A program made the position numbers and the translations under genes. Positions 15,491 through 63,508 of a stretch of 64,000 nt of DNA are shown piece by piece (the stretch's first letter is position 1; the number at the start of each line of letters is the position of its first letter). The stretch lies in NCBI GenBank assembly GCA_041665005.1, contig JBAYJR010000005.1, forward strand, positions 16,312-80,311. Reading direction: 5' to 3'. Below the pieces are notes generated by a model. It was not told the origin of the DNA. It ran no database searches and worked only from the letters and a program-made list of their open reading frames with translations. This DNA comes from Candidatus Buchananbacteria bacterium. Its GTDB lineage: Bacteria > Patescibacteriota > Patescibacteriia > 2-01-FULL-39-33 > JBAYJR01.

Positions 15491-15492
15491 AA

Positions 15493-17067: not shown

Positions 17068-17175
17068 AAATAATAGCAAAGCAAACAAATTATAAGGTTA
17101 ATTATAATATAATTTGAGTTTTTTTTCAAATGGGTCGTAAGGTTAGGTATAAACTATTGAAACACTACAAATACT

Positions 17176-25429: not shown

Positions 25430-26689
25430 TTATTTTTTTAATTCCCCTTCAATTTCCATTACGCGATTATATTTAGCCACTCGTTCGGAACGGGATAAAC
25501 TTCCGGCTTTAAGATAATCAGCGTTAACGGCTACGGCTAGGTCGGCGATAAAAGTATCTTCGGTTTCGCCGGAGCGATGAGAAATAATTACTTTATAGCC
25601 ATGTTTTTTTGCTAAACGAATCGCGGTTAAAGTTTCGGTTAAACTACCAATTTGATTAACTTTAATCAAAATCGCATTTGCTACCTGGTTATCAATTCCC
25701 TGTTGTAAACGTTTAGGATCGGTGGTAAATAAATCGTCGCCTACTAAATGTACTTTTTTTCCTAAAACTTTAGTTAATTTTTGCCAAGTCGACCAATCAT
25801 CTTCCGCCAACGGATCTTCTAAAGAAATTATGGGATATTTGGCCACCAATTGTTCCAAATATTTAATAAACTCTTCGCCACTTAATTTACGACCGGCATT
25901 TTTTAGCTCGTATTGATTAGTTTGGCTGTTAAAAAATTCTGAAGAAGCTAAATCAATGGCGATGGCCACCTCTCGACCAGCCCGGTAGCCGGTTTCTTTA
26001 ATGGCAGTCATTAACAAATCTAATGAGTCTTCGGCAGTTTTGAGTTGTGGCGCAAACCCACCTTCATCACCCACGGCAGTGTTTAATTTTTTAGCTTTTA
26101 AAATCTTTTTTAAAGTTTGAAAAATTTCTGAGCCGCAACGAACGCGCTCGGCAAAAGTTGCTTGTTGTGGCACCAACATAAATTCTTGCCAATCCGCAGC
26201 CCAATTAGCGTGGGCGCCACCATTTAAAACATTCATCATCGGTTTAGGTAATTTCCAAGCAGTTTCTTTTAGACCAGAAAGTTGACGTAAATATTTAAAC
26301 AATGAAATTTTTTTACTGTTCGCGGCCGCTTGGGCGCAAGCTAAAGAAACTGCTAAAATCGCATTAGCACCAAGTTTGTTTTTATTAGGCGTGCCGTCTA
26401 ATTCTAGCATTAATTGATCTAAACCGGATTGTTTCGTTACTTCAAAGCCTTTTAATTTTGGGGCAATTTTTTTGTTAACATTAGCAACAGCCTTTAAAAC
26501 GCCCTTACCATGATAGCGTTTAATATTACCATCACGTAGTTCTAGGGCTTCGTGAACGCCCGTAGAAGCGCCACTAGGCACCATGGCTTGACCAATTGTT
26601 CCATCACTAAGTAAAACTTTGGCGGCAATAGTCGGGTTACCGCGAGAATCAACTATTTCTCGCGCGGTAATATTTTTTATTTTTGGCAT
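25430..26689 (-). CDS. eno: enolase (phosphopyruvate hydratase)
   Basis: AREIVDSRGNPT and ILIKVNQIGSLTET motifs. The track start at 26701 is a TTG; ATG 26687-26689 (MPKIKNI...) is the likely start. Confidence 0.9.
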   Translation of the reverse strand: MPKIKNITAREIVDSRGNPTIAAKVLLSDGTIGQAMVPSGASTGVHEALELRDGNIKRYHGKGVLKAVANVNKKIAPKLKGFEVTKQSGLDQLMLELDGTPNKNKLGANAILAVSLACAQAAANSKKISLFKYLRQLSGLKETAWKLPKPMMNVLNGGAHANWAADWQEFMLVPQQATFAERVRCGSEIFQTLKKILKAKKLNTAVGDEGGFAPQLKTAEDSLDLLMTAIKETGYRAGREVAIAIDLASSEFFNSQTNQYELKNAGRKLSGEEFIKYLEQLVAKYPIISLEDPLAEDDWSTWQKLTKVLGKKVHLVGDDLFTTDPKRLQQGIDNQVANAILIKVNQIGSLTETLTAIRLAKKHGYKVIISHRSGETEDTFIADLAVAVNADYLKAGSLSRSERVAKYNRVMEIEGELKK

Positions 26690-26708
26690 AGTTTTTTGCA
26701 ATTAGTTA

Positions 26709-26993
26709 TTATTGTTCTAAGGAAAATTCTCGTTCTTCTTTTTCGCTAATTAAAGTTTTTAAAAGCTCAATTAATTCTTCAGTCTGAGTTGAGGTTAATG
26801 AATCTAATCCCCGAGCCTCTAGGCCATCATTGATGTTTCGGGTTATTTCTTCGGCGCTAATTCCCGCTTCATATTCTTCATGCATAATGTCGGCATCTTC
26901 TTGGGTAATGCCAAAATCGTTAGCAATGTCAATTAAACGTTGATCAGTTTTGCCGCTAACGGCGTAATTTTGGGTTTCTCTTAGTTCGGACAT
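26709..26993 (-). CDS. small acidic hypothetical protein
   Basis: 94 aa, Glu/Asp-rich, lying between pgk and eno. Confidence 0.35.
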   Translation of the reverse strand: MSELRETQNYAVSGKTDQRLIDIANDFGITQEDADIMHEEYEAGISAEEITRNINDGLEARGLDSLTSTQTEELIELLKTLISEKEEREFSLEQ

Positions 26994-27000
26994 AAATAAT

Positions 27001-28119
27001 TTAGTTAATAATTAACTTTTTTAAACCTGGCAAGGTTTGACCAGAAAAAAATTCTAGCATCGCTCCTCCACCAGTGGACACAAATATATTATTTTTAATT
27101 TTTAAACCTTTAAGCGCCGTTAAAGTTTCTCCACCGCCCAAAACAGCTTTAGCGGAACTAGTAGTGATTGCCCGGGCAATTGTTTTAGTCGCCCGTGCAA
27201 ACTGAGGCTGTTCAAAATAACCCAGCGGACCATTCCAAATAATACTTTTAGCAGATTTAATTAGTTGACAATATTGTTTAATGGTTTTGGGCCCAAGATC
27301 TAAAATCATTTCTTGATTATTTAGTTTACCAAAAATATAATCTTGAGGAATAATAATTTTTTTGTTGGCTAATAATTTTTTAGCCAAGTTTAGTTGTTTT
27401 GGTTCAATTAAAGATTGTTTAATATCAAAACCTTTGGCGGCTAAAAAGTTGTTAGCCAAAGCGCCGCCCAATAGTAAGTAATCATATTTGGTTAATAAGT
27501 TTTTGATGATTAAAATTTTGTCAGAAATTTTAGCCCCGCCAATAATAGCCACGGCTGGATGTTTGGGGTTTAAAGCTTGACTTAAATTTTTTGCTTCTTT
27601 AATTACCAATAAACCAGCGTAGCTTGGTAGATAATGGGTAATTTTTTCTGTGGAGGCCTGCGCTCGGTGAATAGTACCAAAGGCATCCATTACAAATAGC
27701 TCGGCTAAACCGGCTAAAAGTTTGGCTAGCTTGGGACTGTTTTTTTCTTCTTCGGGATAAAATCTAATATTTTCTAGCAAACTTAGGGATTGACCGGCGA
27801 GTTGTTTTTTAGCAAAATCAAAATTTTTAATTAAATCGGTTTGGATAAAAGCAACCGGTTGCTTAAGCAGTCGCGCCAACTCATTAGCGACTGGTCGTAA
27901 AGAAAATTCTTTAACTTTATGACCATTAGGGCGACCTAAGTGTGAACAAAGAATAATTTTAACTCCCTTTTTTTGGAGTAGTTTAATGGTTGGCAAAGAT
28001 TCAACAATTTTTTGATTATTAACCACCCGATCCCCTTTTAATTTGACGTTAAAATCTACTCGCACCAGAGCAGTTTGACCAGCTAAATTTTTAATACTTT
28101 GAATTGACCGAATATTCAT
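27001..28119 (-). CDS. pgk: phosphoglycerate kinase
   Basis: VRVDFNV N-terminal motif and the GGGA/GGGE nucleotide-binding region; 372 aa. Confidence 0.9.
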   Translation of the reverse strand: MNIRSIQSIKNLAGQTALVRVDFNVKLKGDRVVNNQKIVESLPTIKLLQKKGVKIILCSHLGRPNGHKVKEFSLRPVANELARLLKQPVAFIQTDLIKNFDFAKKQLAGQSLSLLENIRFYPEEEKNSPKLAKLLAGLAELFVMDAFGTIHRAQASTEKITHYLPSYAGLLVIKEAKNLSQALNPKHPAVAIIGGAKISDKILIIKNLLTKYDYLLLGGALANNFLAAKGFDIKQSLIEPKQLNLAKKLLANKKIIIPQDYIFGKLNNQEMILDLGPKTIKQYCQLIKSAKSIIWNGPLGYFEQPQFARATKTIARAITTSSAKAVLGGGETLTALKGLKIKNNIFVSTGGGAMLEFFSGQTLPGLKKLIIN

Positions 28120-28194
28120 AAAAGTTATTTTATTATAACACGACTTTTATTTTAAAAAAAGTGGCTTAATTTTGTGGATTAAGCCAGATTAATT

Positions 28195-28773
28195 TTAGTG
28201 CAAATCTCCCAGGACTTCGCCAATCGTAACCTTGTCTCCTAAAGCGATAGTTAAGCTTACCCTATCGGCTGGTAATGTAATCATTACCAGGCTACCAAAA
28301 CAGATTAAACCCAATTCTTGTCCGGCTTCACAGACTTGGTCCAAAGTTAGATAGTTAATAATTCTTCTTGGTAGGTAGCCACTATATTGGGTGATACTGT
28401 AGGTCCAGTTACTGACCTCAATAGTGGTGACAAGGCGATTTTGTTTTCTAATTATTCGCCCCAGTTTTCTTAGGGTAGTGCTAGTGTTAACAATTTGGTA
28501 TTCGCCGGGAATTCTTTCTAAACTGATTACTCGGCCAGCCAGGGGCACATATTGCCGATGAACATTAAAGAGGTTTAACAAAATATACACCTCTATATAT
28601 GTATCAGTTTTATTAATTGGCTGGTCGTAGCAAATTTTTACAATTTTACCCTCAGCTGGCGAAATTAACTTGCCGGGCTTAATTGTATAAACAAGCGGGT
28701 GGCGAAAAAATACAATCAGAAACAATATCACTAAAACTACTACGGTAATTAAACTTGTGAGTAAAAGGTACAT
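28195..28773 (-). CDS. psd: phosphatidylserine decarboxylase-family proenzyme (short, archaeal-type)
   Basis: N-terminal TM helix, ISPAEGKI (SPADG-like), VHRQYVPL (catalytic His region) and an FGS motif (CFGSLV) at the pyruvoyl-forming serine. Confidence 0.55.
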   Translation of the reverse strand: MYLLLTSLITVVVLVILFLIVFFRHPLVYTIKPGKLISPAEGKIVKICYDQPINKTDTYIEVYILLNLFNVHRQYVPLAGRVISLERIPGEYQIVNTSTTLRKLGRIIRKQNRLVTTIEVSNWTYSITQYSGYLPRRIINYLTLDQVCEAGQELGLICFGSLVMITLPADRVSLTIALGDKVTIGEVLGDLH

Positions 28774-28784
28774 GAGATACCCTC

Positions 28785-29039
28785 CTATTTTCCTTCAATT
28801 GATACAACAGTCCAAGTATGCCCGGTTATTGACTTAATGTCAATAGTCAAGCCTTCCGCCAAGGTATTTTTAGCCAATAATCTAAGATTAAACTTTAAAT
28901 TAGCAGGCTTAATTAATTCTCCATGTTCCATTAAGTCACCCAAAGTAAGCTTAAGCTTAGTGATTTTATGTAAGTTATTTTTTTGAGCTTGTTCTAAAAT
29001 AACTTTTATAATTTTATTAGCTTCGTGTAAATCGTGCAT
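28785..29039 (-). CDS. hypA: HypA-like hydrogenase nickel-insertion protein, N-terminal Ni-binding domain only (no Zn-finger)
   Basis: The MHDLHEAN...KITKLKLTLGDL...TLAEGLTIDI pattern matches HypA (MHE Ni site, TxAEGAxLxI). The protein ends before the CxxC...CxxC zinc module. Confidence 0.45.
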   Translation of the reverse strand: MHDLHEANKIIKVILEQAQKNNLHKITKLKLTLGDLMEHGELIKPANLKFNLRLLAKNTLAEGLTIDIKSITGHTWTVVSIEGK

Positions 29040-29098
29040 AATATTAATTTAAAAATTAAAATGCAAAATTCAAAATTTTTATTTAATTAAATTCTGTT

Positions 29099-29800
29099 CT
29101 AATTTTTATTTTTGATATTTACATTTTGAATTAATTTAAGGTACAGCCAATAGGCCAACAAAGCCACGGCGACGCCAGAAAGGACATCAATAAAATAGTG
29201 ATACCTTAAATACATTGTAGACAACCAAACGCTAAGAACAAAAGGTAGTAACCACCAAAAAATAAATCTTTTACGACGCCAACAAAAAAATAAAATCACT
29301 GCGGTATGCGCCACGTGCATACTAGGAAAAGTGTCCCGAGGTGCCCGAACTAAGCTAATTATAAAATTTTCTAGCTTAAAAATTGGCCCACCGATGATTG
29401 ACTGGATAAATTTATCACTCAAATAGCTATCCGGACCAACGGCCGGTAAAATTATATACCCCGTTAAACCAATAATTGAAGTTAGACAAATTAAGATGGT
29501 TATTTTTCGGTATAATTGTTTGTTGTGTAAATAAAAATATAAGGGCGCGACAATTAACAAAGGAAGATATAATAGATAAATTAAGCTAAACCATTCAGTT
29601 AGCCAATAATTATTCCAGCTTTGGATCATTAAGGTTGGTAGTTGACCCCAAAAAAGCCAACGATCAATCGCTGTAAGTAACCAATCAAAACTTTTAATCT
29701 GCCAAAAATCAGCCAGGTAATGAATATTTTGATAAAAAAAGGCCAGCACTAGGTAAGGTGACCAGTCCAGTATAATTTGGTGAAATTTTTTTAAATTCAT
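29099..29800 (-). CDS. PAP2-family lipid phosphatase/phosphotransferase
   Basis: Membrane protein with PSMH (PSGH-like) and LRYHYFIDV (SRx5Hx3D-like) motifs. The likely start is ATG 29798-29800; the track start at 29815 is a GTG. Confidence 0.55.
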   Translation of the reverse strand: MNLKKFHQIILDWSPYLVLAFFYQNIHYLADFWQIKSFDWLLTAIDRWLFWGQLPTLMIQSWNNYWLTEWFSLIYLLYLPLLIVAPLYFYLHNKQLYRKITILICLTSIIGLTGYIILPAVGPDSYLSDKFIQSIIGGPIFKLENFIISLVRAPRDTFPSMHVAHTAVILFFCWRRKRFIFWWLLPFVLSVWLSTMYLRYHYFIDVLSGVAVALLAYWLYLKLIQNVNIKNKN

Positions 29801-29801
29801 A

Positions 29802-31091
29802 TTAATGCGTCGCACAACTAATACAAGGGTCGTAGGCGCGGATTAGGGCGCGAATTTTAATCTGGCGATCATGAGGTTTTAGTTTGGTAATATTTGGCAA
29901 GTAAACCTTAATGTCTTCTTCGATATTATCTAAAAATTGTACGGTTGGGGTGATAATATCGGCCTGTTCAATAATACCGTCGCGATTAATTAGATAATGA
30001 TGATAAAGGGTGCCTCGAGGCGCTTCAATCGCCCCTACTCCGGCAGTGGTTTTGCCCAAAGGATTAGCCCAACCGATTAATTTTAGTTTCTGTGCTTGGC
30101 TCACTTCTACTTTAAGGCCTTGAGTATTAAAATTGTTCAGTAGTTTTTGGCACTCTTCTAACAAGTGAACAATTTCAATTGCCTGAGCTGGAATATTCAT
30201 AAAAGTATTATAAACCGGAAAATCCCAAGCTAAGGAGCGCAAAAGTTTTTTGGCTAGTGGATTTAATTGTTGATGATTGTTATTTATTCTGGCCAAAGCA
30301 CCAACCATAAAGGTACCACCAAGATACTCGGCGCGTTTAGCTGCTTCATAAGGTTTTTGTATTTCTTTAATAACCTGGGCATATTTTTCGGCTGGAATAT
30401 GTAAAGCATTAGTTGAAACCAGATCGCCTTGATAAATTGCGTATTCAGTTTTATCTTTCAATGCAATAAATTCGGTGTGACGTTTAATTACCGGATACTT
30501 GATTTTTTGGGTTAAATTAAAAATATTTTTGGCGTCAGTTAATAACTCGGGAATTTGTTGATTTAAATTTTTTAGTTTAGCTAAGTCCGGATATTTTTTA
30601 AAACCACCTACTTCCGAAGCAATCGGATGAATCGCCCGCCCACCAATTAGCGCTAAAAGTTTTAAACCAAAATCTCGTAAGCGCATCGCCGCTTGAGTTT
30701 CGACTGGATATTTTTTAACAAATTTTAAATCATTATTAAGATCAAAAAAATCCGGCAACGATAAAAAAAATAAGTGCAAGCCGTGGCTATGAATAATCTG
30801 ACCATATTGCATTAGCTTGCGTAATAAAATAGTTTGGTTGGTTGGTTGTAAGCCCAGAGCATTTTCAATTGCTTTAATGCTAGTCAAATTATGCACCACC
30901 GGACAAATGCCGCAAATTCTAGCCGTAATAATTGGTGCATCATAATAGTGCCGACCGACCAACAAGCCCTCAATTAAGCGCGAACCTTCAGTGGTAATGA
31001 ATTTAGCCTGCTTAACGTTATTACCTAAAATTTGGGCCACAAAATCAGTGTGTCCTTCCATCTTGCCAATATGATTTACTTGAATTTTCAT
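29802..31091 (-). CDS. hydA: [NiFe]-hydrogenase large (alpha) subunit, cytoplasmic group-3-type
   Basis: N-terminal RICGICP (RxCGxC) and C-terminal DPCISCATH (DPCxxCxxH) Ni-Fe ligands. The protein terminates exactly at the His, so there is no cleavable C-terminal extension. Confidence 0.85.
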   Translation of the reverse strand: MKIQVNHIGKMEGHTDFVAQILGNNVKQAKFITTEGSRLIEGLLVGRHYYDAPIITARICGICPVVHNLTSIKAIENALGLQPTNQTILLRKLMQYGQIIHSHGLHLFFLSLPDFFDLNNDLKFVKKYPVETQAAMRLRDFGLKLLALIGGRAIHPIASEVGGFKKYPDLAKLKNLNQQIPELLTDAKNIFNLTQKIKYPVIKRHTEFIALKDKTEYAIYQGDLVSTNALHIPAEKYAQVIKEIQKPYEAAKRAEYLGGTFMVGALARINNNHQQLNPLAKKLLRSLAWDFPVYNTFMNIPAQAIEIVHLLEECQKLLNNFNTQGLKVEVSQAQKLKLIGWANPLGKTTAGVGAIEAPRGTLYHHYLINRDGIIEQADIITPTVQFLDNIEEDIKVYLPNITKLKPHDRQIKIRALIRAYDPCISCATH

Positions 31092-31092
31092 A

Positions 31093-31884
31093 TTATTTTT
31101 TGGTTTTTTTACTTTCTTTGATTAACTCCACTTGAAGGCTGTCACGAACACCAAAAACTTCCAGTACTTTACTTATTTCTTCTGAGGAATGTTGGCTAAG
31201 TAATTTTTTCATCAAATTCTTGGTTTTGTGGGTTTTTTGGCTATCCTTAATTAAACCCCGACAACCCCAACAACCTTGGCCACTTTTTAAACAAATTGCC
31301 TGGCAGCCCGCCAAAGTAACTGGCCCCAAACAAATTTCACCTTGCTGTAACAAACAGTCATAACCTCGCAACTGACATTCATTACAAACCGGCTGTTGGG
31401 CAATTTTTGGTAAAACCCCCTCAATCAGCTTATTGGCAATTGTCATAAACTCTTCCCCATCAATTGGACAACCGGGAACAACTAAATCCACCTTAACAAA
31501 ATTAGCAACTTCCTTGATGATTGGATTAGCAATTCCGCGAATATCTTTATAAACCTCGTGGATAGTTTTTTTCTTTAATTGATAATTTTTTATTTCTGGT
31601 ACCCCACCTAAGGCCGCACAATTACCAATTACTACCAACCAGCGACAATGCTTTCTTAAATTTTGTAACAACTCAACGTTGGCCGGAGTAATCGGGTTGC
31701 CTTCAATAAAAACAATGTCATAATTTTCGTTCTGCTTTGAGGTTTCGGCTAGTAATCTAAATTCAGCCAAAGAAACTTTAGTCAGCCAAGCTAAAAATTT
31801 TTGACCTTGATCAAGCATAGAAAATTGACAGCCTTCGCAGGAAGTTAAGCCGATAATAGCAATTTTAGGTTTAATTTTTTCCAT
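31093..31884 (-). CDS. hydD: [NiFe]-hydrogenase small (delta) subunit, group-3-type
   Basis: IAIIGLTSCEGCQ N-terminal proximal-cluster motif and additional Cys clusters; 263 aa. Confidence 0.8.
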   Translation of the reverse strand: MEKIKPKIAIIGLTSCEGCQFSMLDQGQKFLAWLTKVSLAEFRLLAETSKQNENYDIVFIEGNPITPANVELLQNLRKHCRWLVVIGNCAALGGVPEIKNYQLKKKTIHEVYKDIRGIANPIIKEVANFVKVDLVVPGCPIDGEEFMTIANKLIEGVLPKIAQQPVCNECQLRGYDCLLQQGEICLGPVTLAGCQAICLKSGQGCWGCRGLIKDSQKTHKTKNLMKKLLSQHSSEEISKVLEVFGVRDSLQVELIKESKKTKK

Positions 31885-32341
31885 AATTTAGTAATTTTTT
31901 AGCTTCGGTAATTTTATCAATCAAAATTTGCGGTTGATTGCAAGTCAAATAAAAATGCCCAACTACAGTTTTTAAATCAATAGACCGATGCCCCTTGGCT
32001 AAATAAACGGTCTGATGGCCAGTTAAACGTCTAATACCAACGGCAGTTATTTTTTTATCACTTAGATCGGCTGTTTGCCAGTAAAAAATATTGGCCAAAG
32101 GAATTTTTTTAGAAAATAAACCAAAACCAAAGTTTAGCTGTTGCGGGGTTAAAGTAATTGTTAAGTGATTAAAATTTATTAGGTAAAACAAATTGACTAT
32201 GGCTACTAACAAACACAGGTTGCCCTTAAAGGTATAACCTAATTGATAATGATAAGCCAAATAAAGAGGAACTATTATCAAAACCACAAAGACCCCAGTT
32301 AAACCAGGATAAGTTAATTGGCGAGTGCGATATAAAATCAT
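31871..32341 (-). CDS. hypothetical membrane protein inserted in the hydrogenase operon
   Basis: 156 aa with 3 TM helices. No motif. Confidence 0.35.
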   Translation of the reverse strand: MILYRTRQLTYPGLTGVFVVLIIVPLYLAYHYQLGYTFKGNLCLLVAIVNLFYLINFNHLTITLTPQQLNFGFGLFSKKIPLANIFYWQTADLSDKKITAVGIRRLTGHQTVYLAKGHRSIDLKTVVGHFYLTCNQPQILIDKITEAKKLLNYGKN

Positions 32342-33096
32342 ATAGTTAAATTAGCAATGGCTAAGTTATCAGCGGTAATTTTTTTTAAGTACTGCAACTG
32401 TTTAAGGGTTAATTTGTCACAAAACCAATTCCAATGAAAAGAAACATAATCCCCTACTTTAACTTCTAAACTTAGATTCTTTTCGGGCTGAGCTTTAAAA
32501 ATCTTTTTTATAGTAGTTAAACCAAAGTCTAGTTCGCCATCAATTAGCGCCAAAGGCTGGGTACTAACTGAAAAGCTGTCGCCATTATCGGCCACTACTT
32601 GCCCCCAGGAAATTTTACAATTATCCATGGTTTCTAAGGTATGTTCTAAAGTAAAATGTCCAGTGCGAATAAAAACATTAAAGACATGCCAGCTATGATG
32701 TGGCCAAGGTCGTAAGTTAATTTTATCAGTAATTTCGTTCCACAAATTATTTTTTATTTTTTTATTAAGTTGTAGATCGTCACGTAAAAAATTATATAAA
32801 CTATTTTGTGAAACTTTAGTTAATAATTTATTACCAAGCCAATAGGCTTCTACTACCGAAGCAGCAAAGGGATCAGAAATTTTATTAGCCTCAGCAATTA
32901 ATTTTAAATAAGGATGCATGGTGTTAAATTCTTTTAACAACTCAACCAAACCTAAATCCGCAACTTTTTCCGCGCTGTAGGCTAAAATCTCCTTAGGATT
33001 ATCACCACCACAGTATTTTAACCAATTAGGCGGTAAAGCATAGCGACTACAAAGCAATAGCCCAGCTTGATTAGATTTTGTTAAGGATAGGGTCAT
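32338..33096 (-). CDS. hypothetical protein inside the hydrogenase locus
   Basis: 252 aa, soluble, no recognised motif. Confidence 0.35.
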   Translation of the reverse strand: MTLSLTKSNQAGLLLCSRYALPPNWLKYCGGDNPKEILAYSAEKVADLGLVELLKEFNTMHPYLKLIAEANKISDPFAASVVEAYWLGNKLLTKVSQNSLYNFLRDDLQLNKKIKNNLWNEITDKINLRPWPHHSWHVFNVFIRTGHFTLEHTLETMDNCKISWGQVVADNGDSFSVSTQPLALIDGELDFGLTTIKKIFKAQPEKNLSLEVKVGDYVSFHWNWFCDKLTLKQLQYLKKITADNLAIANLTI

Positions 33097-33976
33097 AGTT
33101 ATTATTGTAATTAGAGCGATATTTTACCACTAAAAAAACTCCTATAATAAATATACCATAAATAATACCTTGTTTAATTACAAAATTGTGAGTAACAAAA
33201 ATTGTTTGTAAAATAGTAGTAATTGGCGAAGCCACAACCAAAATTGTGCTAACTGTGGTAACTGATAAGTTTTTTAAAGCTAAATACCAAGTACTAATAA
33301 ACAGCGCTAACAAAACTCCCGTTAGACCTAGCCACAGCCACTGATTAAGATTAAATTGCCAGATTAACAAATTTTTTGGCGAAACAAATAAAGCAATCAA
33401 CGGTAAACCAATCAGTAGCCTACTAAAACCAACCATTAGAGGCGAATAATTAGCTAATAAATTTTTGGCTAGGATAAATTCTACAGCCCAAATTAACGTA
33501 GCCAAAAACACCAAATAATCACCAGGTTGGTTAAGCCAAGTAAACTGACCAAACAATAAATAATTACCACCAAACAATATCGCCAAACCGGCATATTGTT
33601 GCCAGTTAATTTTTTCTTTTAGCCAAAATACTGCCAAGCAAGCAATCCAAACGAATAAAGTTTTGTGAATAAAGGAAGCGTTAATGGCGCTGGTTTGCGC
33701 TAGGCCCTTAAAATACCATATAAAAGCTAAGCCACCCCCGCCCAAGCCAATTAGCAAAAATTTAATCCAGGGCAAATTTTTAGTAGTACCAAGTTTAAAA
33801 TTTTTCAAGCTGGGATAAATTAAGGCAAATAAACAGATAACCGCAACTAAATTTTTTAAAAAAGTATATTGTACTGGGTCGGCAAAATTATTTAAAGCTA
33901 GTTTATTAACAAAATTGGCCAGACCGGAAATTACTGCTGCTAAAACGGCTAAAGCTAAATATTTATATTTTTTCAT
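33071..33976 (-). CDS. EamA/DMT-family transporter
   Basis: 10-TM protein with an EamA-like duplication. Confidence 0.65.
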   Translation of the reverse strand: MKKYKYLALAVLAAVISGLANFVNKLALNNFADPVQYTFLKNLVAVICLFALIYPSLKNFKLGTTKNLPWIKFLLIGLGGGGLAFIWYFKGLAQTSAINASFIHKTLFVWIACLAVFWLKEKINWQQYAGLAILFGGNYLLFGQFTWLNQPGDYLVFLATLIWAVEFILAKNLLANYSPLMVGFSRLLIGLPLIALFVSPKNLLIWQFNLNQWLWLGLTGVLLALFISTWYLALKNLSVTTVSTILVVASPITTILQTIFVTHNFVIKQGIIYGIFIIGVFLVVKYRSNYNNNYDPILNKI

Positions 33977-34178
33977 GTTGATTTAAAATTTTTAAAATCT
34001 CTTTAGCTTCTTTGGCGGTAATTTTACTTAAAGCCAAATTAGCGTTTGTTAGTAACCAATCCCCTGTTTTTACTTTAGCTAATAATAAATTTTTGACTTG
34101 ATAAATCTTTTTACCATTTTTCACGGTCAGCTCATTATTTTTTATTTTAATTATTTGTACCGGAGTAGTTAAACACAT
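33963..34178 (-). CDS. hypC: [NiFe]-hydrogenase maturation chaperone HypC/HupF
   Basis: The N-terminus MCLTTP matches the invariant MC(L/I)(A/G)(I/V)P motif; 71 aa. Confidence 0.7.
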   Translation of the reverse strand: MCLTTPVQIIKIKNNELTVKNGKKIYQVKNLLLAKVKTGDWLLTNANLALSKITAKEAKEILKILNQHEKI

Positions 34179-34182
34179 AAAA

Positions 34183-34989
34183 TTAGATGGCTTCGGGAAT
34201 ATTTTTTAATTGTTCATAAGTAAACACTGGACCATCTTTACAAACATAATAGGGACCAATCGCACAATGCTGACAAACTCCTAAACCGCAATACATTTTT
34301 CTTTCAAGCGACAAATAAATATTACTTGGTAAAACTTTTTTAGCTAACAAGGATTTTAAAACAAATTTATACATCAGCGGTGGGCCAACCATAATTATTT
34401 TGGTGGTTAAAGAAATTTGAGTCTGGTTTAATAATTCAGTAATTAACCCTTGTTTACCGGGCCACGAACCTTCTGGTTGCTCTAAAATTACTTTAAAGTC
34501 ACTTTTAGCCTGCCAAGTAGCTTGTTCCTTGGTAAATAATAGTGCCCTTTGATTTTTACAGCCATAAATTGTTTGCAAAGATTTTAATGGTAATTTACCG
34601 GCTGTGTAGTCTAAAATAATTGGCCGCAAAGGAATAAAGCCGCAGCCACCACCAATTAGTAACACTGATTGATTAAGTAACTCTTTAGCCAGGCCATTAC
34701 CAAAAGGGCCCCGAATAAATAGGTTATTTCCAGGTTTTAGCTGTTGTAATTTGGTGGTTAAGCCACCAACTTGGCGCACGGCCACGGCTAAAGTATTTTT
34801 AATTTCCGGTGAAGAAGTAAGGCTCAAAGCGGCCTCGCCCCAACCCGGTAAGCCAGCCATAATAAACTGTAAGTATTTAAAATCAAACCTGGTAGCACGA
34901 GGTAACTGTAAGGTTAATAACTTTGTATCCGCCGAGACTGCTTGGCTGCTTAAAATTTTTACCGCTAAAGGTAGATAAGGATTATTCAT
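34183..34989 (-). CDS. hydG: hydrogenase gamma subunit (FAD/NAD(P)-binding reductase with C-terminal [2Fe-2S] motif, PyrK-like)
   Basis: Ferredoxin-reductase-like fold and C-terminal CGLGVCQHCAIGPYYVCKDGPVF. Confidence 0.7.
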   Translation of the reverse strand: MNNPYLPLAVKILSSQAVSADTKLLTLQLPRATRFDFKYLQFIMAGLPGWGEAALSLTSSPEIKNTLAVAVRQVGGLTTKLQQLKPGNNLFIRGPFGNGLAKELLNQSVLLIGGGCGFIPLRPIILDYTAGKLPLKSLQTIYGCKNQRALLFTKEQATWQAKSDFKVILEQPEGSWPGKQGLITELLNQTQISLTTKIIMVGPPLMYKFVLKSLLAKKVLPSNIYLSLERKMYCGLGVCQHCAIGPYYVCKDGPVFTYEQLKNIPEAI

Positions 34990-34990
34990 A

Positions 34991-35965
34991 CTATTTTTTT
35001 GTCGTTGGTTTTTTTAGTTCCGCTAAAACTTTTCTAATATCAATTCCTACCGGACAAACCTGGTAACAACGTAAACAACTTATACAGCCTGGCACCGCGT
35101 ATTTATATTGCTGCGGAATTCGCACAAATTTATGGGTATACCAAAAAAAGATTCTTTGTTTAATGGTTTCTTGAAAATTATTACCACCGGCCACTAGGCC
35201 AAAATCTGAATTAAAACAATTGCCCGCTACCCGGCAACGGCTACAATTTTTTTCAGTCAAATCAAAGCAATAACAAGTTGGACAAACCGCCGAGCATTTA
35301 CCACAGGCTAAGCAAGTTTTGGCTAATTTTTCCCAAACGGGATGATTAACTGATTTACTTATCAACCCCGCCAATTCTTGAGCTTTAATTGAGCCTTCTT
35401 TGGCCGGGCCAATAAAGGCTACGTGTTGGTAATCAGTAATTCCCTGATTTTCCAAAAATTGTTGCCCCCTTTTGGTACCGGTATAAAAAATAAAATTAGC
35501 GCCATGTTTAATAATAAAAACATCAAAGACTAAATGTTCTAATAAATTATCTTCCAATTCTAAGGCAAAATTTTTGTAATGTTTAGCACTAACAGCGTCG
35601 GCTGGGTGAAAACCAATCACTAAAATTTGACGGCGACGAGCTTGGTAATAAGGATCTTTGGCAAAAACTTGTTCATACAAGGTTAATGCCTTTAAATCTA
35701 AGACGTTCAAACCCCAGGCAATAATGTTTTTTGCTTCTTGATTAATTACGGTTTCCACCTTAGTTTTTTGATAAGTAATTATTTCTTGTTCGGCTGGTAA
35801 AAATATTTCTTTAAAAGAGTTTTGCGGCAGCTTACCAGAATAATCTACGGTTTTAACTTGCGTAATTTTTTGCACCAAAATTTGACGTTTAATTACCACG
35901 GGTCCGTAAATTATAAAACTACCTAATAACTTCTTTAGCCATTTGTCTAAATCTTTTTTTAGCAT
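34991..35965 (-). CDS. hydB: hydrogenase beta subunit (AsrA-like, 2x[4Fe-4S])
   Basis: CLACGKCSAVCPTCYCF and CISCLRCYQVCPVG ferredoxin motifs. The likely start is ATG 35963-35965 (MLKKDLDKW); the track ORF over-extends into the upstream gene. Confidence 0.7.
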   Translation of the reverse strand: MLKKDLDKWLKKLLGSFIIYGPVVIKRQILVQKITQVKTVDYSGKLPQNSFKEIFLPAEQEIITYQKTKVETVINQEAKNIIAWGLNVLDLKALTLYEQVFAKDPYYQARRRQILVIGFHPADAVSAKHYKNFALELEDNLLEHLVFDVFIIKHGANFIFYTGTKRGQQFLENQGITDYQHVAFIGPAKEGSIKAQELAGLISKSVNHPVWEKLAKTCLACGKCSAVCPTCYCFDLTEKNCSRCRVAGNCFNSDFGLVAGGNNFQETIKQRIFFWYTHKFVRIPQQYKYAVPGCISCLRCYQVCPVGIDIRKVLAELKKPTTKK

Positions 35966-35969
35966 AAAA

Positions 35970-36977
35970 TTAACGCCAAGTTGGTTGCCATAATTTTTTT
36001 GTTTCTTGCCAAAAAGTATTATCCCCCGACAATTTACGCCAATACATCCACTCCGCTCCCCAAAGATAATATTCCGTAAAGCCGGTTTTTTTAGCGTAAC
36101 TAATTGTCTCACTTAAGCGCGTCAAATTCATAGAGTTGTTTTGTTCGTCTTTGCTCATTTCTTTCATCGGTTTCCAAGTCCAGGGCTCGGCTTGTAATTC
36201 GGTAACAATTATCTTTTTTTGTCCGTAAAGTTTTTGCACCACATAGGCATGTAAACGATAAAGGGCTGGTGGAAGATGATAAGACCAAAAACCTAAATAT
36301 TTATTCCAAACTATGCGATACATAGTGGTGCCCAAATAATCAGACAGTGAAGCCACTCTAAACCAACCGGATAATTCTCCTGAATCGGTTAAATAGACTG
36401 GTCGCGGGTCTAAAGATTGAATTAGGGCGTATTCCTCGGCCAAAAAAGCCTTATCTGGTTTAGGGCAAACGCCAAACAATGAAAGCAAAGGCTCATTTTC
36501 TAGTTGCCAAGCCTTAATATTGTGATAGTTTTTAAAATGTTCTAACTCTACGCGTAGTAATTGCAAAACTTTGGCTTGACTTTCGGTTTCGGGAAAATTT
36601 TTTAGCCAGGCCGGATCGTGACATTCTGGCCAACGCGGTTGCCGACGACCCAAAGTCAAAATTACTTGCACCCCTCGCCTATCAGCTTCCTGTAATTGCC
36701 AATCAATATCTTTAAAATCATATTGGCCGGGAGCTTTTTCTATTTCTGACCAATAATTAGATAAGCGTAAATTATTTACTTTTAAATCATCTAAAATTGC
36801 CAAATAAGTTTGCCGCCAATTTAAACCCAATTGTTCCGCGTAAGGTTTAGAAAAAGAAACCCCCCAGCTAATATTAGCTTTAGTGTAATCTTGCTGATAA
36901 ATAATATAAATTAACAAAATTGCGATAATAACGACTAACCAGCCAGTGCGACTTTTAAAAAAATTATAAAATTTCAT
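35970..36977 (-). CDS. membrane-anchored TIM-barrel glycoside hydrolase (GH-A clan / GH5-like)
   Basis: N-terminal TM helix, VQVILTLG, and WQLENEPL (the NEP catalytic-acid motif). Confidence 0.45.
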   Translation of the reverse strand: MKFYNFFKSRTGWLVVIIAILLIYIIYQQDYTKANISWGVSFSKPYAEQLGLNWRQTYLAILDDLKVNNLRLSNYWSEIEKAPGQYDFKDIDWQLQEADRRGVQVILTLGRRQPRWPECHDPAWLKNFPETESQAKVLQLLRVELEHFKNYHNIKAWQLENEPLLSLFGVCPKPDKAFLAEEYALIQSLDPRPVYLTDSGELSGWFRVASLSDYLGTTMYRIVWNKYLGFWSYHLPPALYRLHAYVVQKLYGQKKIIVTELQAEPWTWKPMKEMSKDEQNNSMNLTRLSETISYAKKTGFTEYYLWGAEWMYWRKLSGDNTFWQETKKLWQPTWR

Positions 36978-36979
36978 AG

Positions 36980-37552
36980 TTAACTGCGCTTAATTCTTCT
37001 TACGTAAGGCTCAATCAAAATAATTAGGATAGTAAAAAAAGCAAATAAAGTAAAGGTCATGGTCCATTTTAGTAGACCAATTGGCCAATGTTCATAAGCG
37101 ACCGGCAAATAACACAGTAAAGACATGGCGACGCCAAAATAATAATCAACCGGAAAAATACCTAGCCATTCTTTATGAATTATTTTGGCTTCAGTTTTAA
37201 AATTATTAAGATCAATATGAGGATTAATCACAAACCACAAAAAATCCCACAAAACAATAAACAAAAAAAAGATTGAAAGAATTTCTAAAAAGTTTATTAA
37301 AGTAAACGGCACACCAAATTCAAAGGGTAACATAAAAAATAAAAAAATTAAGCCAAAAACGTGTAAATGATAACCAGTCAATTCCTTGCCGTGCATCATT
37401 TTTTTAAAAAATTTGGCATACCACTCATCTTCCGCCGGCCGCCAAGTTGGTAATTTTTTAGCCCAACCGTAAGCCCCTTCTATTTCCACTTCTAACGAAG
37501 CTAAAATAAAAGCCAATAAGCATAAATAAAGATCCGCCCAAAGATTAATCAT
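36980..37552 (-). CDS. hypothetical polytopic membrane protein
   Basis: 190 aa with 5 TM helices. Confidence 0.35.
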   Translation of the reverse strand: MINLWADLYLCLLAFILASLEVEIEGAYGWAKKLPTWRPAEDEWYAKFFKKMMHGKELTGYHLHVFGLIFLFFMLPFEFGVPFTLINFLEILSIFFLFIVLWDFLWFVINPHIDLNNFKTEAKIIHKEWLGIFPVDYYFGVAMSLLCYLPVAYEHWPIGLLKWTMTFTLFAFFTILIILIEPYVRRIKRS

Positions 37553-37556
37553 AGGG

Positions 37557-38441
37557 TTATTTAATAACTAAATATAAACCACCAGAAATTATAATAATCG
37601 CTAATATTTTTTGTAATAAAATTTTTTTGTTAACCGCCTCTTTAAAAATTTGCGGCGCTTTAAGCGAAATAACTACCGTAATAATTAGTAAAAAAGCATA
37701 TTGCACGCCTTGCATGGCGTTGATCAAACTAACACTACCTAAAGAAATGGCATAATTGATTAAGAAAAAGCCAATTGCTCCTAAAGCCTGGTTGGTTAAA
37801 AACAAAAATTGCGTTTTTTTCGGTAAGGGCTGGCTTTTGGCAAAAATCGCTGTTCGATATTTGGCAAAAAATAAAAATGGCACAACTGCTAAAAAAGCCC
37901 CAACTGACCGCCAAATAAAAGCACACAAAAATCCTAGTTCGTTGTAGGAATACTTGGAAACAGCGTAAGAAGCGGCAAACAAAAAAGTAGAAGTAGTTGC
38001 CAAGATTAAAGCCTTAGTATTAACTTTTTTACCTTCACTGGTAATTAGCAAACTACCTAAAACTAATAACTCAAATGCGACCAATTGCCAAGTAGTTAAA
38101 CGTTCGCCTACCAAAAAATAGGCAAACGCAAAAACAAAAATTGGCTGTAAGCCCCCGATATAAGGAACAATTCGTGAAGCTTCTTCCACTTTTAAAGCAC
38201 TGAAGAAGGCCAATAAAGCCAAAGAATACAAAACCCCGGAAGCCAAGGCAATAATTAATTGCCAAGCACTGGGCAAATACAGTCCCCAGGGGGCCGCTAA
38301 CAAGATAATTAAACCTAAAGTTGCAATATAAAAAGTATAAACTACCGGCCGAGAAATTTGCTTGGTTAATAAATACTTATCTATTACAAAAACAATAGCA
38401 TTTAAAAATTGAGCAATGATTACTAAAAAAAGCCAAATCAT
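37557..38441 (-). CDS. EamA/DMT-family transporter
   Basis: 10-TM protein; the third EamA paralog in the window. Confidence 0.65.
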   Translation of the reverse strand: MIWLFLVIIAQFLNAIVFVIDKYLLTKQISRPVVYTFYIATLGLIILLAAPWGLYLPSAWQLIIALASGVLYSLALLAFFSALKVEEASRIVPYIGGLQPIFVFAFAYFLVGERLTTWQLVAFELLVLGSLLITSEGKKVNTKALILATTSTFLFAASYAVSKYSYNELGFLCAFIWRSVGAFLAVVPFLFFAKYRTAIFAKSQPLPKKTQFLFLTNQALGAIGFFLINYAISLGSVSLINAMQGVQYAFLLIITVVISLKAPQIFKEAVNKKILLQKILAIIIISGGLYLVIK

Positions 38442-38478
38442 ATGGTTATATTATAACACATTTTGCTTAACTAAAAAA

Positions 38479-39207
38479 CTATTCCAAGAGAGTAATAATA
38501 AAAATCATTAACATGCCACCTAAAGTGGCAAAAATTAAAGCCCAAGAACTGTGTTCGTGATGAGCTTCGGGCAATAAATCGGCGGCGCCTAAATAAATAA
38601 AGGACCCGGCAAAGATTGCTAGTATAATGGCTAAAATATAAATTGGTAATAGAACAAAATAACCCAAAGTAGCCCCTAATAACGGCGCCAAGGCCACAGC
38701 TAACAGCCAAAAATAACTTTGACTCAAGGTTTGGTGGTGAAACAAGGAGATAGAAACAGTAGTAATGCCATCAGCTAATTTATGAAAAATAATTGCCACC
38801 GCCAAACTTAAACCTAAAGCCACTGAAACTTTAAAACCTAAACCAATAATTAAACCATCAAAAAAACTATGCAAGATTAAACTAAAAATTTTAGTTGTGC
38901 CCAAATGTTGATGTTGGGCTCGTGAGCATTTTTCACCTTCTGGGCAACTGTGCAAAATAGCCAAGCGTTGTAACAAAAATAACAGCACAAAACCTAGCAT
39001 AATCCCCCAACTTAAGTAATCATTATTAAGTTTGGTCAGATTGCTTAAATTATAACTTTCGGGAATTAAATCAAAAATTGCAACAGCGATTAAACTACCC
39101 GCCGAAAAAGCTAGCACATAATGCAACTGCTGAGAAAATTTAGTGGCTAAATAGCCACCAAGTAAAGTAGCTAAAACTGTAGCCAAGGTTAACAAAAAAA
39201 TAGTCAT
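38479..39207 (-). CDS. ZIP-family divalent metal transporter (ZupT-like)
   Basis: 8-TM protein with the His-rich loop HHEH and AIIFHKLADG (HNxxEG-like) in TM4/5. The track start at 39219 is a TTG; ATG 39205-39207 is the likely start. Confidence 0.65.
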   Translation of the reverse strand: MTIFLLTLATVLATLLGGYLATKFSQQLHYVLAFSAGSLIAVAIFDLIPESYNLSNLTKLNNDYLSWGIMLGFVLLFLLQRLAILHSCPEGEKCSRAQHQHLGTTKIFSLILHSFFDGLIIGLGFKVSVALGLSLAVAIIFHKLADGITTVSISLFHHQTLSQSYFWLLAVALAPLLGATLGYFVLLPIYILAIILAIFAGSFIYLGAADLLPEAHHEHSSWALIFATLGGMLMIFIITLLE

Positions 39208-39227
39208 AAATAAATTCAAATTATAAT

Positions 39228-40277
39228 TTAAAGAATATTCACTGCAAAACGGCCGGAACAGCCAGAATCGGGATAGTCCAGATTGATCCGATTCAAACTG
39301 ACCAGCGCACGACCTAGGTAGAAACTAGCACGCGGCACGTAGCCAGATTTAAAATAACTATTAAGTAAATAACAAGTTTTACCCAAGTCTTCCCAGTTAT
39401 CAATCACTTGATCGGTTTGGGCTAAATGGGTTAGGGCATAAACTAGCCATGATTCTAGGGTTAAGCCTTGTTCACCTTTATACTGAAGGTCGGTTTGAAG
39501 TTGTTTAAGATAATCATTGGGTGATTGGTTAGCTTCTGGTTGCTGACGATGAGCGATGATTTTACCTTGTCCTATATCTGGAAGGCTAGGCAAGTCTTCA
39601 AGTAGTAGAACCTGCCAGGCTTGAGTGGGTAAAAGTTCTTGCTTGGTTTTACCTTGATGATTAGTTTTGGAGTATTCTTGGGGGAAATATACTAAATCCC
39701 CTTTTTCATCGGCCTTTGCGTATCCAGTCCCATCCCAAATAGACACTTCCCTAAGCTCCAAAGGTCGATTTTGAATGTCTAATAACTTACCTTGTTGATG
39801 GTGCTTGAATAGAGTATTGCCATAAGCCTTAATTAGGGAATCTAGCGGTAAGCCAAAGGGAACAATAATTAGTTTTATAAAGCCTTGTGGGATTTTAGTT
39901 TCTAAGAACTTGCGTTTTTCTAGCATCATTTCTTCAATCTGTTCTAAGGTGGGTATGGGATATTCTTGCTTATCGATTGCTTCGATGCCTAATTCGCCAG
40001 TGGCGAGGGTTTTTAGGAGGCCTGAGTTTAGAAGAAGGTTCTTCTGAAATTCATATTGGGCTTTAAGACTTTCTTGGCCTATTTCAAGAGTTTCTAGCCA
40101 TATTTTGTTTTGGAGGTCTTGGAGGGGTTGTTCTAATTTAGTTTTTGCTTCTCTGACCAAAGCCAAGTCCTCTGTCTTACCTGTTTGAGGTAGGCTAAAT
40201 AATTCTAAATCAAACTGTTGTTTGAGTTGTTTGAGAAAGTCTAGCTTAGTGGTAAGTTCGGGGCAAAGTTGAGGCAT
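39228..40277 (-). CDS. paralog 1 of a novel 5-gene family (shared N-terminal CPEL coiled-coil module plus a conserved ~290-aa core)
   Basis: MPQLCPELTTKLDFLKQLKQQF... N-terminus. The core carries YPIPTLEQI, GFIKLIIVPFGLPLDSL, LLPTQAWQVLL and YLKQLQTDLQYKGEQGLTLESWLVYAL. Confidence 0.5.
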   Translation of the reverse strand: MPQLCPELTTKLDFLKQLKQQFDLELFSLPQTGKTEDLALVREAKTKLEQPLQDLQNKIWLETLEIGQESLKAQYEFQKNLLLNSGLLKTLATGELGIEAIDKQEYPIPTLEQIEEMMLEKRKFLETKIPQGFIKLIIVPFGLPLDSLIKAYGNTLFKHHQQGKLLDIQNRPLELREVSIWDGTGYAKADEKGDLVYFPQEYSKTNHQGKTKQELLPTQAWQVLLLEDLPSLPDIGQGKIIAHRQQPEANQSPNDYLKQLQTDLQYKGEQGLTLESWLVYALTHLAQTDQVIDNWEDLGKTCYLLNSYFKSGYVPRASFYLGRALVSLNRINLDYPDSGCSGRFAVNIL

Positions 40278-40298
40278 ATTTTTATAATAACAAAGAAA

Positions 40299-41042: not shown

Positions 41043-41065
41043 AAAATTATTTAGAAAGATAAAAA

Positions 41066-42091: not shown

Positions 42092-42119
42092 AAAATATTA
42101 AATTCATTGATCACTTTAT

Positions 42120-43364: not shown

Positions 43365-43394
43365 AAAATTATAATAACATTAACAACGTAAAAA

Positions 43395-63507: not shown

Positions 63508-63508
63508 A

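Follow-up and report, generated by a model that had tools for sequence, protein, structure and literature searches.

A group 3b-like [NiFe]-hydrogenase operon from a Candidatus Buchananbacteria bacterium with a reduced and partly unfamiliar set of maturation genes

Introduction

How is a [NiFe]-hydrogenase assembled when most of the genes that usually serve this purpose are not found beside it? The maturation of these enzymes by HypA, HypB, HypC, HypD, HypE, HypF, and an endopeptidase is considered almost universal. The question is raised by a hydrogenase locus in a Candidatus Buchananbacteria bacterium, which lies on the minus strand of a 64,000-nucleotide (nt) stretch of contig JBAYJR010000005.1 (positions 16,312 to 80,311, hereafter called the window). 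Together with more than 100 related operons, the window carries a stripped-down and partly unfamiliar maturation set. An original prediction for this DNA had described a group 3b-type hydrogenase locus interrupted by unrelated genes, with a large subunit that lacks a C-terminal extension and a truncated hypA. The explanation that we consider probable is that the locus is a group 3b-like operon of the “hyd1” type known from the ultra-small bacteria of the candidate phyla radiation (CPR), which has a reduced maturation set built in, manages without proteolysis of its large subunit, and additionally hosts a few passenger genes.

The hydrogenase and its assignment to group 3b

The large subunit HydA was compared with all protein chains of the PDB by phmmer, and families were assigned with NCBIfam and Pfam profiles. 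The best structural matches are the alpha subunit of Pyrococcus furiosus sulfhydrogenase I (220 bits) and HyhL of Thermococcus kodakarensis (216 bits), followed at a distance by enzymes of group 3c (141-168 bits, MvhA 168), group 3d (HoxH, 126 bits), group 3a (Frh, at most 119 bits), and group 1 (at most 91 bits). The NCBIfam profiles rank in the same way, with ShyA (6.5e-74) and HydA (3.4e-73) at 247-249 bits and FrhA/VhuA at 143 bits. ShyA and HydA, with the corresponding models of the other subunits, come first for all four subunits, at scores far below the equivalog cut-offs (249 versus 700). Both metal-ligand motifs, RICGICPVVH and DPCISCATH, are present in HydA, and their CxxC pairs are strictly kept in 120 homologs. 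Genes for an AsrA-like Fe-S beta subunit and an AsrB-like gamma subunit that binds flavin adenine dinucleotide (FAD) and NAD(P) share the operon with hydD and hydA. The ranking against PDB and NCBIfam, taken together with these two subunits, supports the predicted group 3b-type call, since the nearest solved relatives belong to this group.

The closest characterized systems are thus the 3b enzymes of the Thermococcales, represented by P. furiosus sulfhydrogenase I (9e1j/9nez) and T. kodakarensis Hyh (5yxy). Their four subunits are of the same types as those of the window, the CxxC motifs L1 and L2 are shared, and they give the best sequence matches (216-220 bits). In contrast to the Thermococcales genes, those of the window are not contiguous and are accompanied by different maturation genes. 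Judged by the sequence scores, which stay so far under the equivalog cut-offs, the window hydrogenase is a distant branch relative to the Thermococcales enzymes.

The locus is best explained as a CPR “hyd1”-type, group 3b-like cytosolic [NiFe]-hydrogenase operon. The hyd1 enzymes were described as a CPR-specific clade related to group 3b with a full-length small subunit, in which the beta and gamma genes do not always adjoin the small subunit gene and a hypC-like family is found nearby (Jaffe et al. 2020, PMC7304191). The window locus fits this description; the hydrogenase type, the scattered layout, and the neighboring hypC are thus already published for CPR. The passages of the paper that were searched do not mention a tail-less HydA, a zinc-less HypA, DUF6390, a cassette with an EamA transporter, or radical S-adenosylmethionine (SAM) partners.

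The enzyme would be composed of the catalytic alpha subunit, the small delta subunit, and a diaphorase module of the AsrA-like beta and AsrB-like gamma subunits. Most likely, it exchanges electrons between NAD(P)H and H2, and it probably serves the disposal of glycolytic reductant. This role fits the conserved synteny of hypA with the genes for phosphoglycerate kinase (pgk), enolase, and cofactor-independent phosphoglycerate mutase in related loci.

Layout of the operon

The twelve genes of the original prediction are all present on the minus strand in the order and at the positions given, as confirmed by the listing of open reading frames (ORFs), Pfam, and NCBIfam. Lengths are in amino acids (aa).

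34991-35965, minus strand: hydB, beta subunit, 324 aa; AsrA-like Fe-S electron-transfer subunit of the diaphorase module (Fer4_22, 1.1e-19)
34183-34989, minus strand: hydG, gamma subunit, 268 aa; AsrB-like (FAD_binding_6, NAD_binding_1, DHODB_Fe-S_bind)
33963-34178, minus strand: hypC, 71 aa (HupF_HypC, 53.2 bits, cut-off 28.5)
33071-33976, minus strand: EamA/DMT (drug/metabolite) transporter, 301 aa (EamA, 1.8e-35, 122.6 bits); first gene of the EamA-DUF6390 cassette
32338-33096, minus strand: DUF6390 protein, 252 aa (PF19927, 190 bits)
31871-32341, minus strand: predicted membrane protein, 156 aa; no Pfam or NCBIfam family
31093-31884, minus strand: hydD, delta (small) subunit, 263 aa (Oxidored_q6, 1.1e-21)
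29802-31091, minus strand: hydA, alpha (large, catalytic) subunit, 429 aa (NiFeSe_Hases; ShyA, 6.5e-74)
29099-29815, minus strand: PAP2-superfamily membrane protein, 238 aa (PAP2_3, 9e-21; PAP2, 1.5e-11)
28785-29039, minus strand: mini-HypA, 84 aa (HypA of Pfam, 36.2 bits, cut-off 28.9)
28195-28773, minus strand: psd-like gene, phosphatidylserine decarboxylase-like protein, 192 aa (PS_Dcarbxylase, 2.8e-24)
28162-28186, T-run on the minus strand: terminator-like inverted repeat (stem of 9-11 pairs, tail CTTTTTTTAA); consensus match only
27001-28119, minus strand: pgk, phosphoglycerate kinase; follows the psd-like gene

The ATG of hydB is codon 50 of a longer ORF that begins at 36112, and relatives align from residue 1 of the hydB start. 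HydB matches ShyB (5e-33), HydB (2e-24), and AsrA (7e-23), each below the equivalog cut-off, and the gamma subunit matches PRK08345 (4e-54) and ShyC (4e-45). HydD (ShyD, 1.1e-44; HydD, 3.3e-41) has the full length seen in the hyd1 type. By its family, the PAP2 protein is of the lipid phosphatase or transferase type. Between hydB and the PAP2 gene, neighboring genes either share up to 26 nt or are separated by 1-4 nt, and the psd-like gene is the last one ahead of the hairpin at 28162-28186. The close spacing and the hairpin after the psd-like gene make the stretch from hydB to this gene look like one tightly packed transcription unit, of which the hairpin would be the probable 3′ end. Neither frameshifts nor internal stops occur in the genes of the locus in the ORF listing for positions 26000-39000 of the window.

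A large subunit that is made without a tail

HydA ends with DPCISCATH, and the stop codon follows immediately after the histidine. Among the 120 closest homologs, 119 end at the same histidine of the DPCxxCxxH motif and the remaining one is cut short. The absence of a tail is therefore genuine, and a sequencing error that truncates the gene, the alternative that the original prediction had allowed for, is excluded by the identical ends of the homologs.

The counterpart to this enzyme is found in a second CPR clade, hyd2, which was reached via the gene neighborhoods of DUF6390. Its small subunits are truncated (162-175 aa), and its large subunits end in FLKVxWx-type tails of 7-20 aa, e.g. FLKVKWA. 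In a neighbor-joining tree of HydA, calculated without support values, the tail-less hyd1 and the tailed hyd2 enzymes form two deep clades. The presence of a tail goes along with the presence of a further gene. In a metagenome set of 80 DUF6390 loci (L025-L104), 34 are of the hyd2 type and 13 of the hyd1 type. Directly after DUF6390, 32 of the 34 hyd2-type loci hold an ORF of 120-140 aa that resembles the endopeptidase HycI, which is found in none of the 13 hyd1-type loci; the complete large subunits of the latter end at the histidine in seven out of seven cases. The ORF family occurs at this position in 44 of the 80 metagenome loci as well as in L016 (8729-9094) and L018 (8729-9142).

The HycI-like ORFs match the Pfam HycI model below its threshold in 19 of 26 members, at best with 8.6e-4. 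They contain an invariant GN, D15, D53, and H79-D80; known hydrogenase endopeptidases have their metal-binding residues in the same order. A search of the PDB sequences with a profile of the family returned no endopeptidase. Tentatively, these conserved residues suggest that the ORF of the hyd2 loci probably encodes a very divergent hydrogenase endopeptidase. Such a gene was not found in the window, neither by Pfam on the ORFs nor by tblastn. The distribution of the HycI-like neighbor (0/13 versus 32/34) supports the earlier claim that no endopeptidase is needed for HydA. The large subunit would be synthesized in its already “processed” form, ending at the histidine after the last cysteine ligand, and the C-terminal endopeptidase step would not take place.

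The 3b precursors of the Thermococcales differ in that they carry a tail of four residues (428 versus 424 aa), which is removed by a protease. Naturally tail-less [NiFe] large subunits exist in groups 2b and 4, namely those of the regulatory hydrogenases (HoxC/HupV), CooH, and EchE. They likewise end at or near the histidine or arginine after the last cysteine ligand. In contrast to these, the loss of the tail is fixed here in a group 3b-type clade, whereas the sister clade hyd2 keeps both the tail and the HycI-like gene.

A HypA without the zinc module

The hypA gene of the window encodes a protein of 84 aa, mini-HypA, which starts with MHD and contains no cysteine at all. It scores 40.8 bits with TIGR00100 (cut-off 88.1). 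As only 11 nt separate it from the psd-like gene, no frameshifted zinc module is hidden behind it. In 12 related genome loci, an ortholog of 84-86 aa lies behind hydA and immediately precedes pgk. A search of 1.8 billion representative proteins returned about 70 clusters of 79-87 aa, which have no CxxC and of which most are free of cysteine; canonical HypA proteins (111-131 aa, with CxxC pairs) surface in this search only at E-values of about 1e-4.

In the alignment, the final strand (W-x-L-x-x-I-E-G-E) is retained and corresponds to the canonical C-terminal strand, while the zinc finger of 35-45 residues ahead of it is absent. Additionally, a conserved four-residue “EHGE” loop is present. Met1 and His2 are invariant in 53 sequences. 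The AlphaFold2 model, with a predicted local distance difference test (pLDDT) score of 89, is predicted to superpose on T. kodakarensis HypA (3a43) with a TM-score of 0.88 and a root-mean-square deviation of 1.8 Å, and the 14 best PDB matches in Foldseek are all HypA. Matches of mini-HypA to polyubiquitin repeats, which scored above the true HypA match in the phmmer search of the PDB, are spurious and were disregarded.

Mini-HypA is therefore the nickel domain of HypA from which the zinc module has been excised internally, and it constitutes a conserved family. The loss of the zinc module and the retention of the Met-His nickel motif were both recognized correctly in the original prediction. 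The description of hypA as truncated is to be revised, since the C-terminal strand is kept, the deletion is internal, and the short form is a family of its own. Compared with canonical HypA (3a43, 5aun, 5yxy; from Helicobacter pylori 2kdx and 6g81), the N-terminal Met-His motif, the alpha/beta fold of the nickel domain, and the placement in the operon downstream of hydA are the same. The differences are the missing zinc module with its two CxxC pairs, the added EHGE loop, and the lack of a HypB gene nearby. Mini-HypA may deliver nickel via Met1, His2, and possibly His39.

In the homologs P0284, P0299, P0320, and P0329, histidine-rich insertions (e.g. HNHKHDNQDNSCH, HAGHDHHSLH) are found at the position of the EHGE loop. 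These expansions suggest a second metal-binding site in the proteins that carry them, and a metal-binding role of the EHGE loop itself would fit them.

The EamA-DUF6390 cassette

Between hypC and the small subunit gene, the window holds an EamA transporter and a DUF6390 protein. The latter matches PF19927 with 190 bits (cut-off 25) over residues 9-250, and its homologs are spread over many CPR phyla. A [NiFe]-hydrogenase of either type stands beside DUF6390 in eight of ten contexts that were inspected individually, and in 17 of the 18 metagenome loci with at least 3 kilobases (kb) of upstream and at least 5 kb of downstream sequence. The EamA gene accompanies DUF6390 in 51 of the 64 metagenome loci with at least 1 kb upstream. 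The usual order is hypC, EamA, DUF6390, and then the HycI-like gene where present. EamA and DUF6390 are thus a conserved cassette that accompanies hydrogenases in many lineages of CPR. The original prediction had counted four unrelated genes between the gamma and delta genes. This does not hold, as hypC is a maturation gene and EamA and DUF6390 form the hydrogenase-linked cassette; the 156-aa protein alone is without a counterpart in related loci.

Two EamA repeats (PF00892) are matched in the cassette transporter. It is orthologous to the EamA proteins that adjoin DUF6390 elsewhere (135-171 bits), and the EamA proteins of the cassettes are orthologs of one another (135-367 bits); the scores against the two other EamA genes of the window are 0-32 bits. 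By these sequence scores, the cassette EamA is a dedicated subfamily. One may guess that it imports a precursor.

In 45 DUF6390 sequences, the residues C29, H134, H137, C160, H221, W222, and C226 are invariant. The AlphaFold2 model (pLDDT 92) is composed of a helical domain rich in cysteine and histidine (residues 1-160), a beta-barrel (163-229), and a C-terminal helix. Its top Foldseek matches in the PDB are the HypC structures 2z1c and 3vyr, with TM-scores of 0.66-0.80 on the length of HypC and E-values of about 1e-2. In agreement with this, hhalign aligns DUF6390 to HypC with an E-value of 1.6e-4 and a probability of 50% over 30 columns, which places the segment “VKVGDYVSFHW...” on the “GDWVL...” strand of HypC. 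The Pfam model HupF_HypC does not match DUF6390, and the DUF6390 profile finds a single chance match among the PDB sequences. The predicted fold and the hhalign alignment would put C160 and H221 in the positions of Cys2 and His51 of HypC. The C-terminal domain may resemble HypC in the predicted fold, the cysteine at the start of the first strand, and the histidine of the “GDxVxxH” strand. It differs from HypC in the internal position of this cysteine and in the additional helical domain of 160 residues, for which no relative was detected. From its sequence and model, DUF6390 is a candidate maturation factor, which together with HypC may assemble the active-site iron moiety or pass it on.

In locus L022 (2732-7786), DUF6390 stands divergently beside genes for NifS, NifU_N, NifU, a Fer4_15 ferredoxin, and a Pyr_redox_2 reductase. 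The ferredoxin and the reductase are the usual partners of hyd2.

HypC and the apparent replacement of the cassette in sister loci

The HypC protein of the window begins with MCLTTP and matches TIGR00074 with 48.1 bits (cut-off 48). A profile of the CPR HypC proteins finds T. kodakarensis HypC (2z1c) at 3e-17. The Met-Cys start and the OB fold are shared with HypC/HupF and the HypC-HypD scaffold (3vyr, 3vys), but an equivalent of His51 is absent; additionally, HypD was not found in the window. The canonical histidine (His51 in Escherichia coli numbering, the histidine of “VIVH”) is replaced with threonine or asparagine in 12 of 12 CPR HypC proteins. Within the maturation set, HypC would act as the chaperone of the iron moiety, with its N-terminal cysteine and without His51.

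In related hyd1 loci the slot of the cassette is filled differently. Ten of the 14 related genome loci encode a protein of about 420 aa that begins with HypC and whose remainder is HydE, a maturase of [FeFe]-hydrogenases (TIGR03956, 257 bits, cut-off 254.6). The fusion is followed by the [FeFe]-hydrogenase maturase HydG, not to be confused with the gamma subunit gene hydG, in L004, L007, and L010 (518-595 bits with TIGR03955 in the three that were scored, cut-off 312), and a HydG-like radical SAM gene is present in L108.

L002:5175-6455, L004:6593-9101, L007:170-4537, L010:6242-8880, L108:9719-12667: HypC-HydE fusion, in some with HydG, in sister hyd1 loci

At least 118 of the 120 best-matching protein clusters of the fusion carry both PF01455 and PF04055. 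In the NCBI annotation it is named HydE or biotin synthase, and the HypC part is unmarked. We know of no earlier report of HydE or HydG in [NiFe]-hydrogenase operons or fused to HypC. The two modules were not found together in these loci: HydE and HydG occur in none of the 80 DUF6390 metagenome loci, DUF6390 in none of the ten HydE loci, and tblastn found neither HydE nor HydG in the window. Within hyd1, the HydA tree (neighbor-joining, no support values) intermingles loci of the DUF6390 type with those of the HydE type. This looks like a repeated replacement of EamA-DUF6390 and HypC-HydE/HydG at one operon position, and this replacement suggests that both modules serve the same step. Compared with the [FeFe]-hydrogenase systems, the sister hyd1 loci hold the maturases HydE and HydG in the slot that is occupied here by EamA-DUF6390.

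Passenger genes

Three genes of the operon have no equivalent in the related loci. For the 156-aa membrane protein, tblastn gave no match in any of them; its gene overlaps its neighbors by 4 nt at the start and 14 nt at the stop. In L001, L012, and L014, DUF6390 directly abuts hydD. A comparison of the 156-aa protein with the HycI-like ORF that follows DUF6390 in other loci gave no similarity, and it was rejected as a counterpart. The PAP2 protein has no homolog at the corresponding position of related loci, and the psd-like gene is absent from them. Other hyd1 loci hold small methyltransferases, a pyridoxal phosphate enzyme, a CDP-alcohol phosphatidyltransferase, and, between hydD and hydA, Mur ligases in the same slots. 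The 156-aa protein, PAP2, and the psd-like protein would accordingly be lineage-specific passengers that were inserted at operon slots that vary among relatives.

An extreme case is found in L108 (13996-16705, Parcubacteria), in which two Mur ligase genes split the small and large subunit genes. Genes for phospholipid head groups recur in the operons, with a CDP-alcohol phosphatidyltransferase in L002 (6520-7077, minus strand) and L107 (11343-11903, minus strand) and the PAP2 and phosphatidylserine decarboxylase-like genes at 28195-29815 of the window on the same theme. This recurrence may be a coincidence or reflect a loose neighborhood. A SAM-methyltransferase-like gene of 170-185 aa (L002:4474-4986, with paralogs in L004-L012, cluster c6) occupies slots after the gamma subunit gene hydG and after hydA and is absent from the window.

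Upstream of hydB, at 37557-39219 on the minus strand, lie an unrelated second EamA gene and a ZIP-family metal transporter, at a distance of 1.6-3.3 kb. Neither is conserved in the related loci, so that nothing supports a link to metal supply. The ZIP transporter, which lies 2.5 kb upstream, was accordingly rejected as a member of the system.

Possible maturation without the canonical maturases

HypB, HypD, HypE, HypF, HycI, HydE, and HydG were not found in the 64 kb of the window by ORF reading, Pfam, tblastn, or motif scan, and the original prediction was right in placing hypB, hypD, hypE, and hypF outside of it. They were likewise not found in about 2.7 kb beyond one window end on the same contig of 82,510 base pairs and in about 1.7 kb past the other end, on a second contig of 10.8 kb with the same genes. 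The search covered about 68 kb of the genome (the window and about 4.4 kb of flanks). HypB, HypD, HypE, and HypF were also not found in the Pfam-annotated loci L016-L024, L107, and L108, and their signature motifs were not found in 1.13 Mb around 100 related loci by a regular-expression scan, which is a weak test.

A far-reaching reading of these findings is that the [NiFe]-hydrogenases of CPR mature without HypD, HypE, and HypF. EamA-DUF6390 and HypC-HydE/HydG would be interchangeable sources of the iron-carbonyl-cyanide moiety, and the zinc-less HypA would insert nickel without HypB. In one route, carbon monoxide and cyanide would be generated from tyrosine by radical SAM enzymes of the [FeFe]-hydrogenase type; in the other, an imported precursor would be combined with a new HypC-like scaffold. 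We put this forward as a tentative and rather doubtful proposal. If the cassette components do replace HypD, HypE, and HypF, the result is a minimal maturation pathway that would be useful for heterologous hydrogenase production; the biosynthesis of two hydrogenase classes would be linked, and a function could be assigned to DUF6390. Otherwise, the locus presents three natural “deletion experiments”, in the zinc domain of HypA, His51 of HypC, and the C-terminal tail of the large subunit, which inform on the function of these elements. A literature search, with subscription journals outside of its coverage, returned nothing on the correlation between tail and protease, the zinc-less HypA family, the EamA-DUF6390 cassette, or HypC-HydE/HydG in [NiFe] operons.

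Several points weigh against an operon with a built-in maturation set. No metal-binding motifs were found in the EamA sequence, and the DUF6390 genes of L022 and L023 have no hydrogenase within 7 kb. The resemblance of the DUF6390 model to HypC is modest, and the cysteine in question is internal and not N-terminal. The roles given to DUF6390, EamA, and mini-HypA, as well as the direction of catalysis, are deduced from sequence, synteny, and predicted folds, and the single transcription unit from gene spacing and one consensus hairpin only. Finally, genes for HypB, HypD, HypE, and HypF could lie in other parts of the genome, in which case the role of the cassette would be no more than accessory.

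This last point leads to the explanation that ordinary HypB, HypC, HypD, HypE, and HypF mature the enzyme from elsewhere in the genome, while the cassette serves its physiology, e.g. by the transport and carrying of a sulfur compound for a reaction of the sulfhydrogenase type or by regulation, and not its assembly. EamA-family proteins are metabolite carriers, the conserved cysteines of DUF6390 could carry sulfur, DUF6390 adjoins NifS and NifU in L022, and only about 68 kb of the genome enter into the comparison. Polysulfide is reduced by characterized 3b enzymes (Ma et al. 1993, as cited in PMC7304191). We nevertheless judge the explanation unlikely, because DUF6390 is typically flanked by maturation genes (hypC and, in hyd2, also the HycI-like gene) and its C-terminal domain, as modeled, is HypC-like and keeps the Cys/His pair that is partly lost in the neighboring CPR HypC. 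Moreover, sister loci hold the cofactor-biosynthesis enzymes HypC-HydE and HydG in the same slot, and HypB, HypD, HypE, and HypF lack any motif in the 1.13 Mb around 100 loci, by motif scan only, and are missing from L107 and L108.

The locus could also be read as an eroding hydrogenase cluster of a reduced genome, in which all inserted genes are unrelated and HypA is truncated and possibly decaying. That hyd1 loci accept passengers, such as the Mur ligases of L108, the CDP-alcohol phosphatidyltransferase of L002 and L107, and the 156-aa, PAP2, and psd-like genes of the window, is in line with erosion, as is the failure to find hypB, hypD, hypE, and hypF in the window. Decay is, however, difficult to reconcile with a cassette that recurs beside the hydrogenases of two deeply separated CPR clades, a full-length mini-HypA that is kept in 12 related loci and about 70 sequence clusters, metal-ligand motifs of HydA that are all intact in 120 homologs, and genes that are free of frameshifts and internal stops, so that we regard it as highly improbable. 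Less probable still, to a degree that it hardly needs to be considered, is a hydrogenase-like redox enzyme with another role, for which normal maturation would be unneeded. CPR do encode group 4-related “Ehr” proteins without the metal-binding cysteines (Jaffe et al., PMC7304191), and the canonical machinery was not found near hydA. The HydA protein described here, in contrast, has both CxxC pairs (RICGICPVVH and DPCISCATH) strictly conserved, is strongly similar over its full length to structurally characterized 3b enzymes, and is encoded beside HypC and the nickel domain of HypA.

Other genes of the window and its relatives

The glycolytic neighborhood contains two tandem paralogs of cofactor-independent phosphoglycerate mutase at 13895-17088 (minus strand), with overlapping ORFs. 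Related loci (cluster c2; L107) likewise have both copies downstream of enolase. For the gene between pgk and enolase in the relatives, an assignment as triose-phosphate isomerase was rejected, as it encodes a SIMPL/DUF541 protein. At 57882-62444 (minus strand), a protein of 1520 aa combines PPDK_N with three repeats of the phosphoenolpyruvate-utilizing mobile domain; an ordinary pyruvate phosphate dikinase of 889 aa lies about 10 kb away at 45025-47694 (minus strand).

Five tandem paralogs of 247-414 aa are located at 39228-44480 (minus strand). They share the N-terminus MPQLCPELTTKL..., and one has WD40-type repeats; no other Pfam family was found in the three that were scanned. Finally, a reductase of flavin mononucleotide that depends on NADPH adjoins a cupredoxin-domain protein at 62950-63886 of the window (minus strand) and in L105 (1936-2691), an unexpected redox pair in a fermentative CPR genome.

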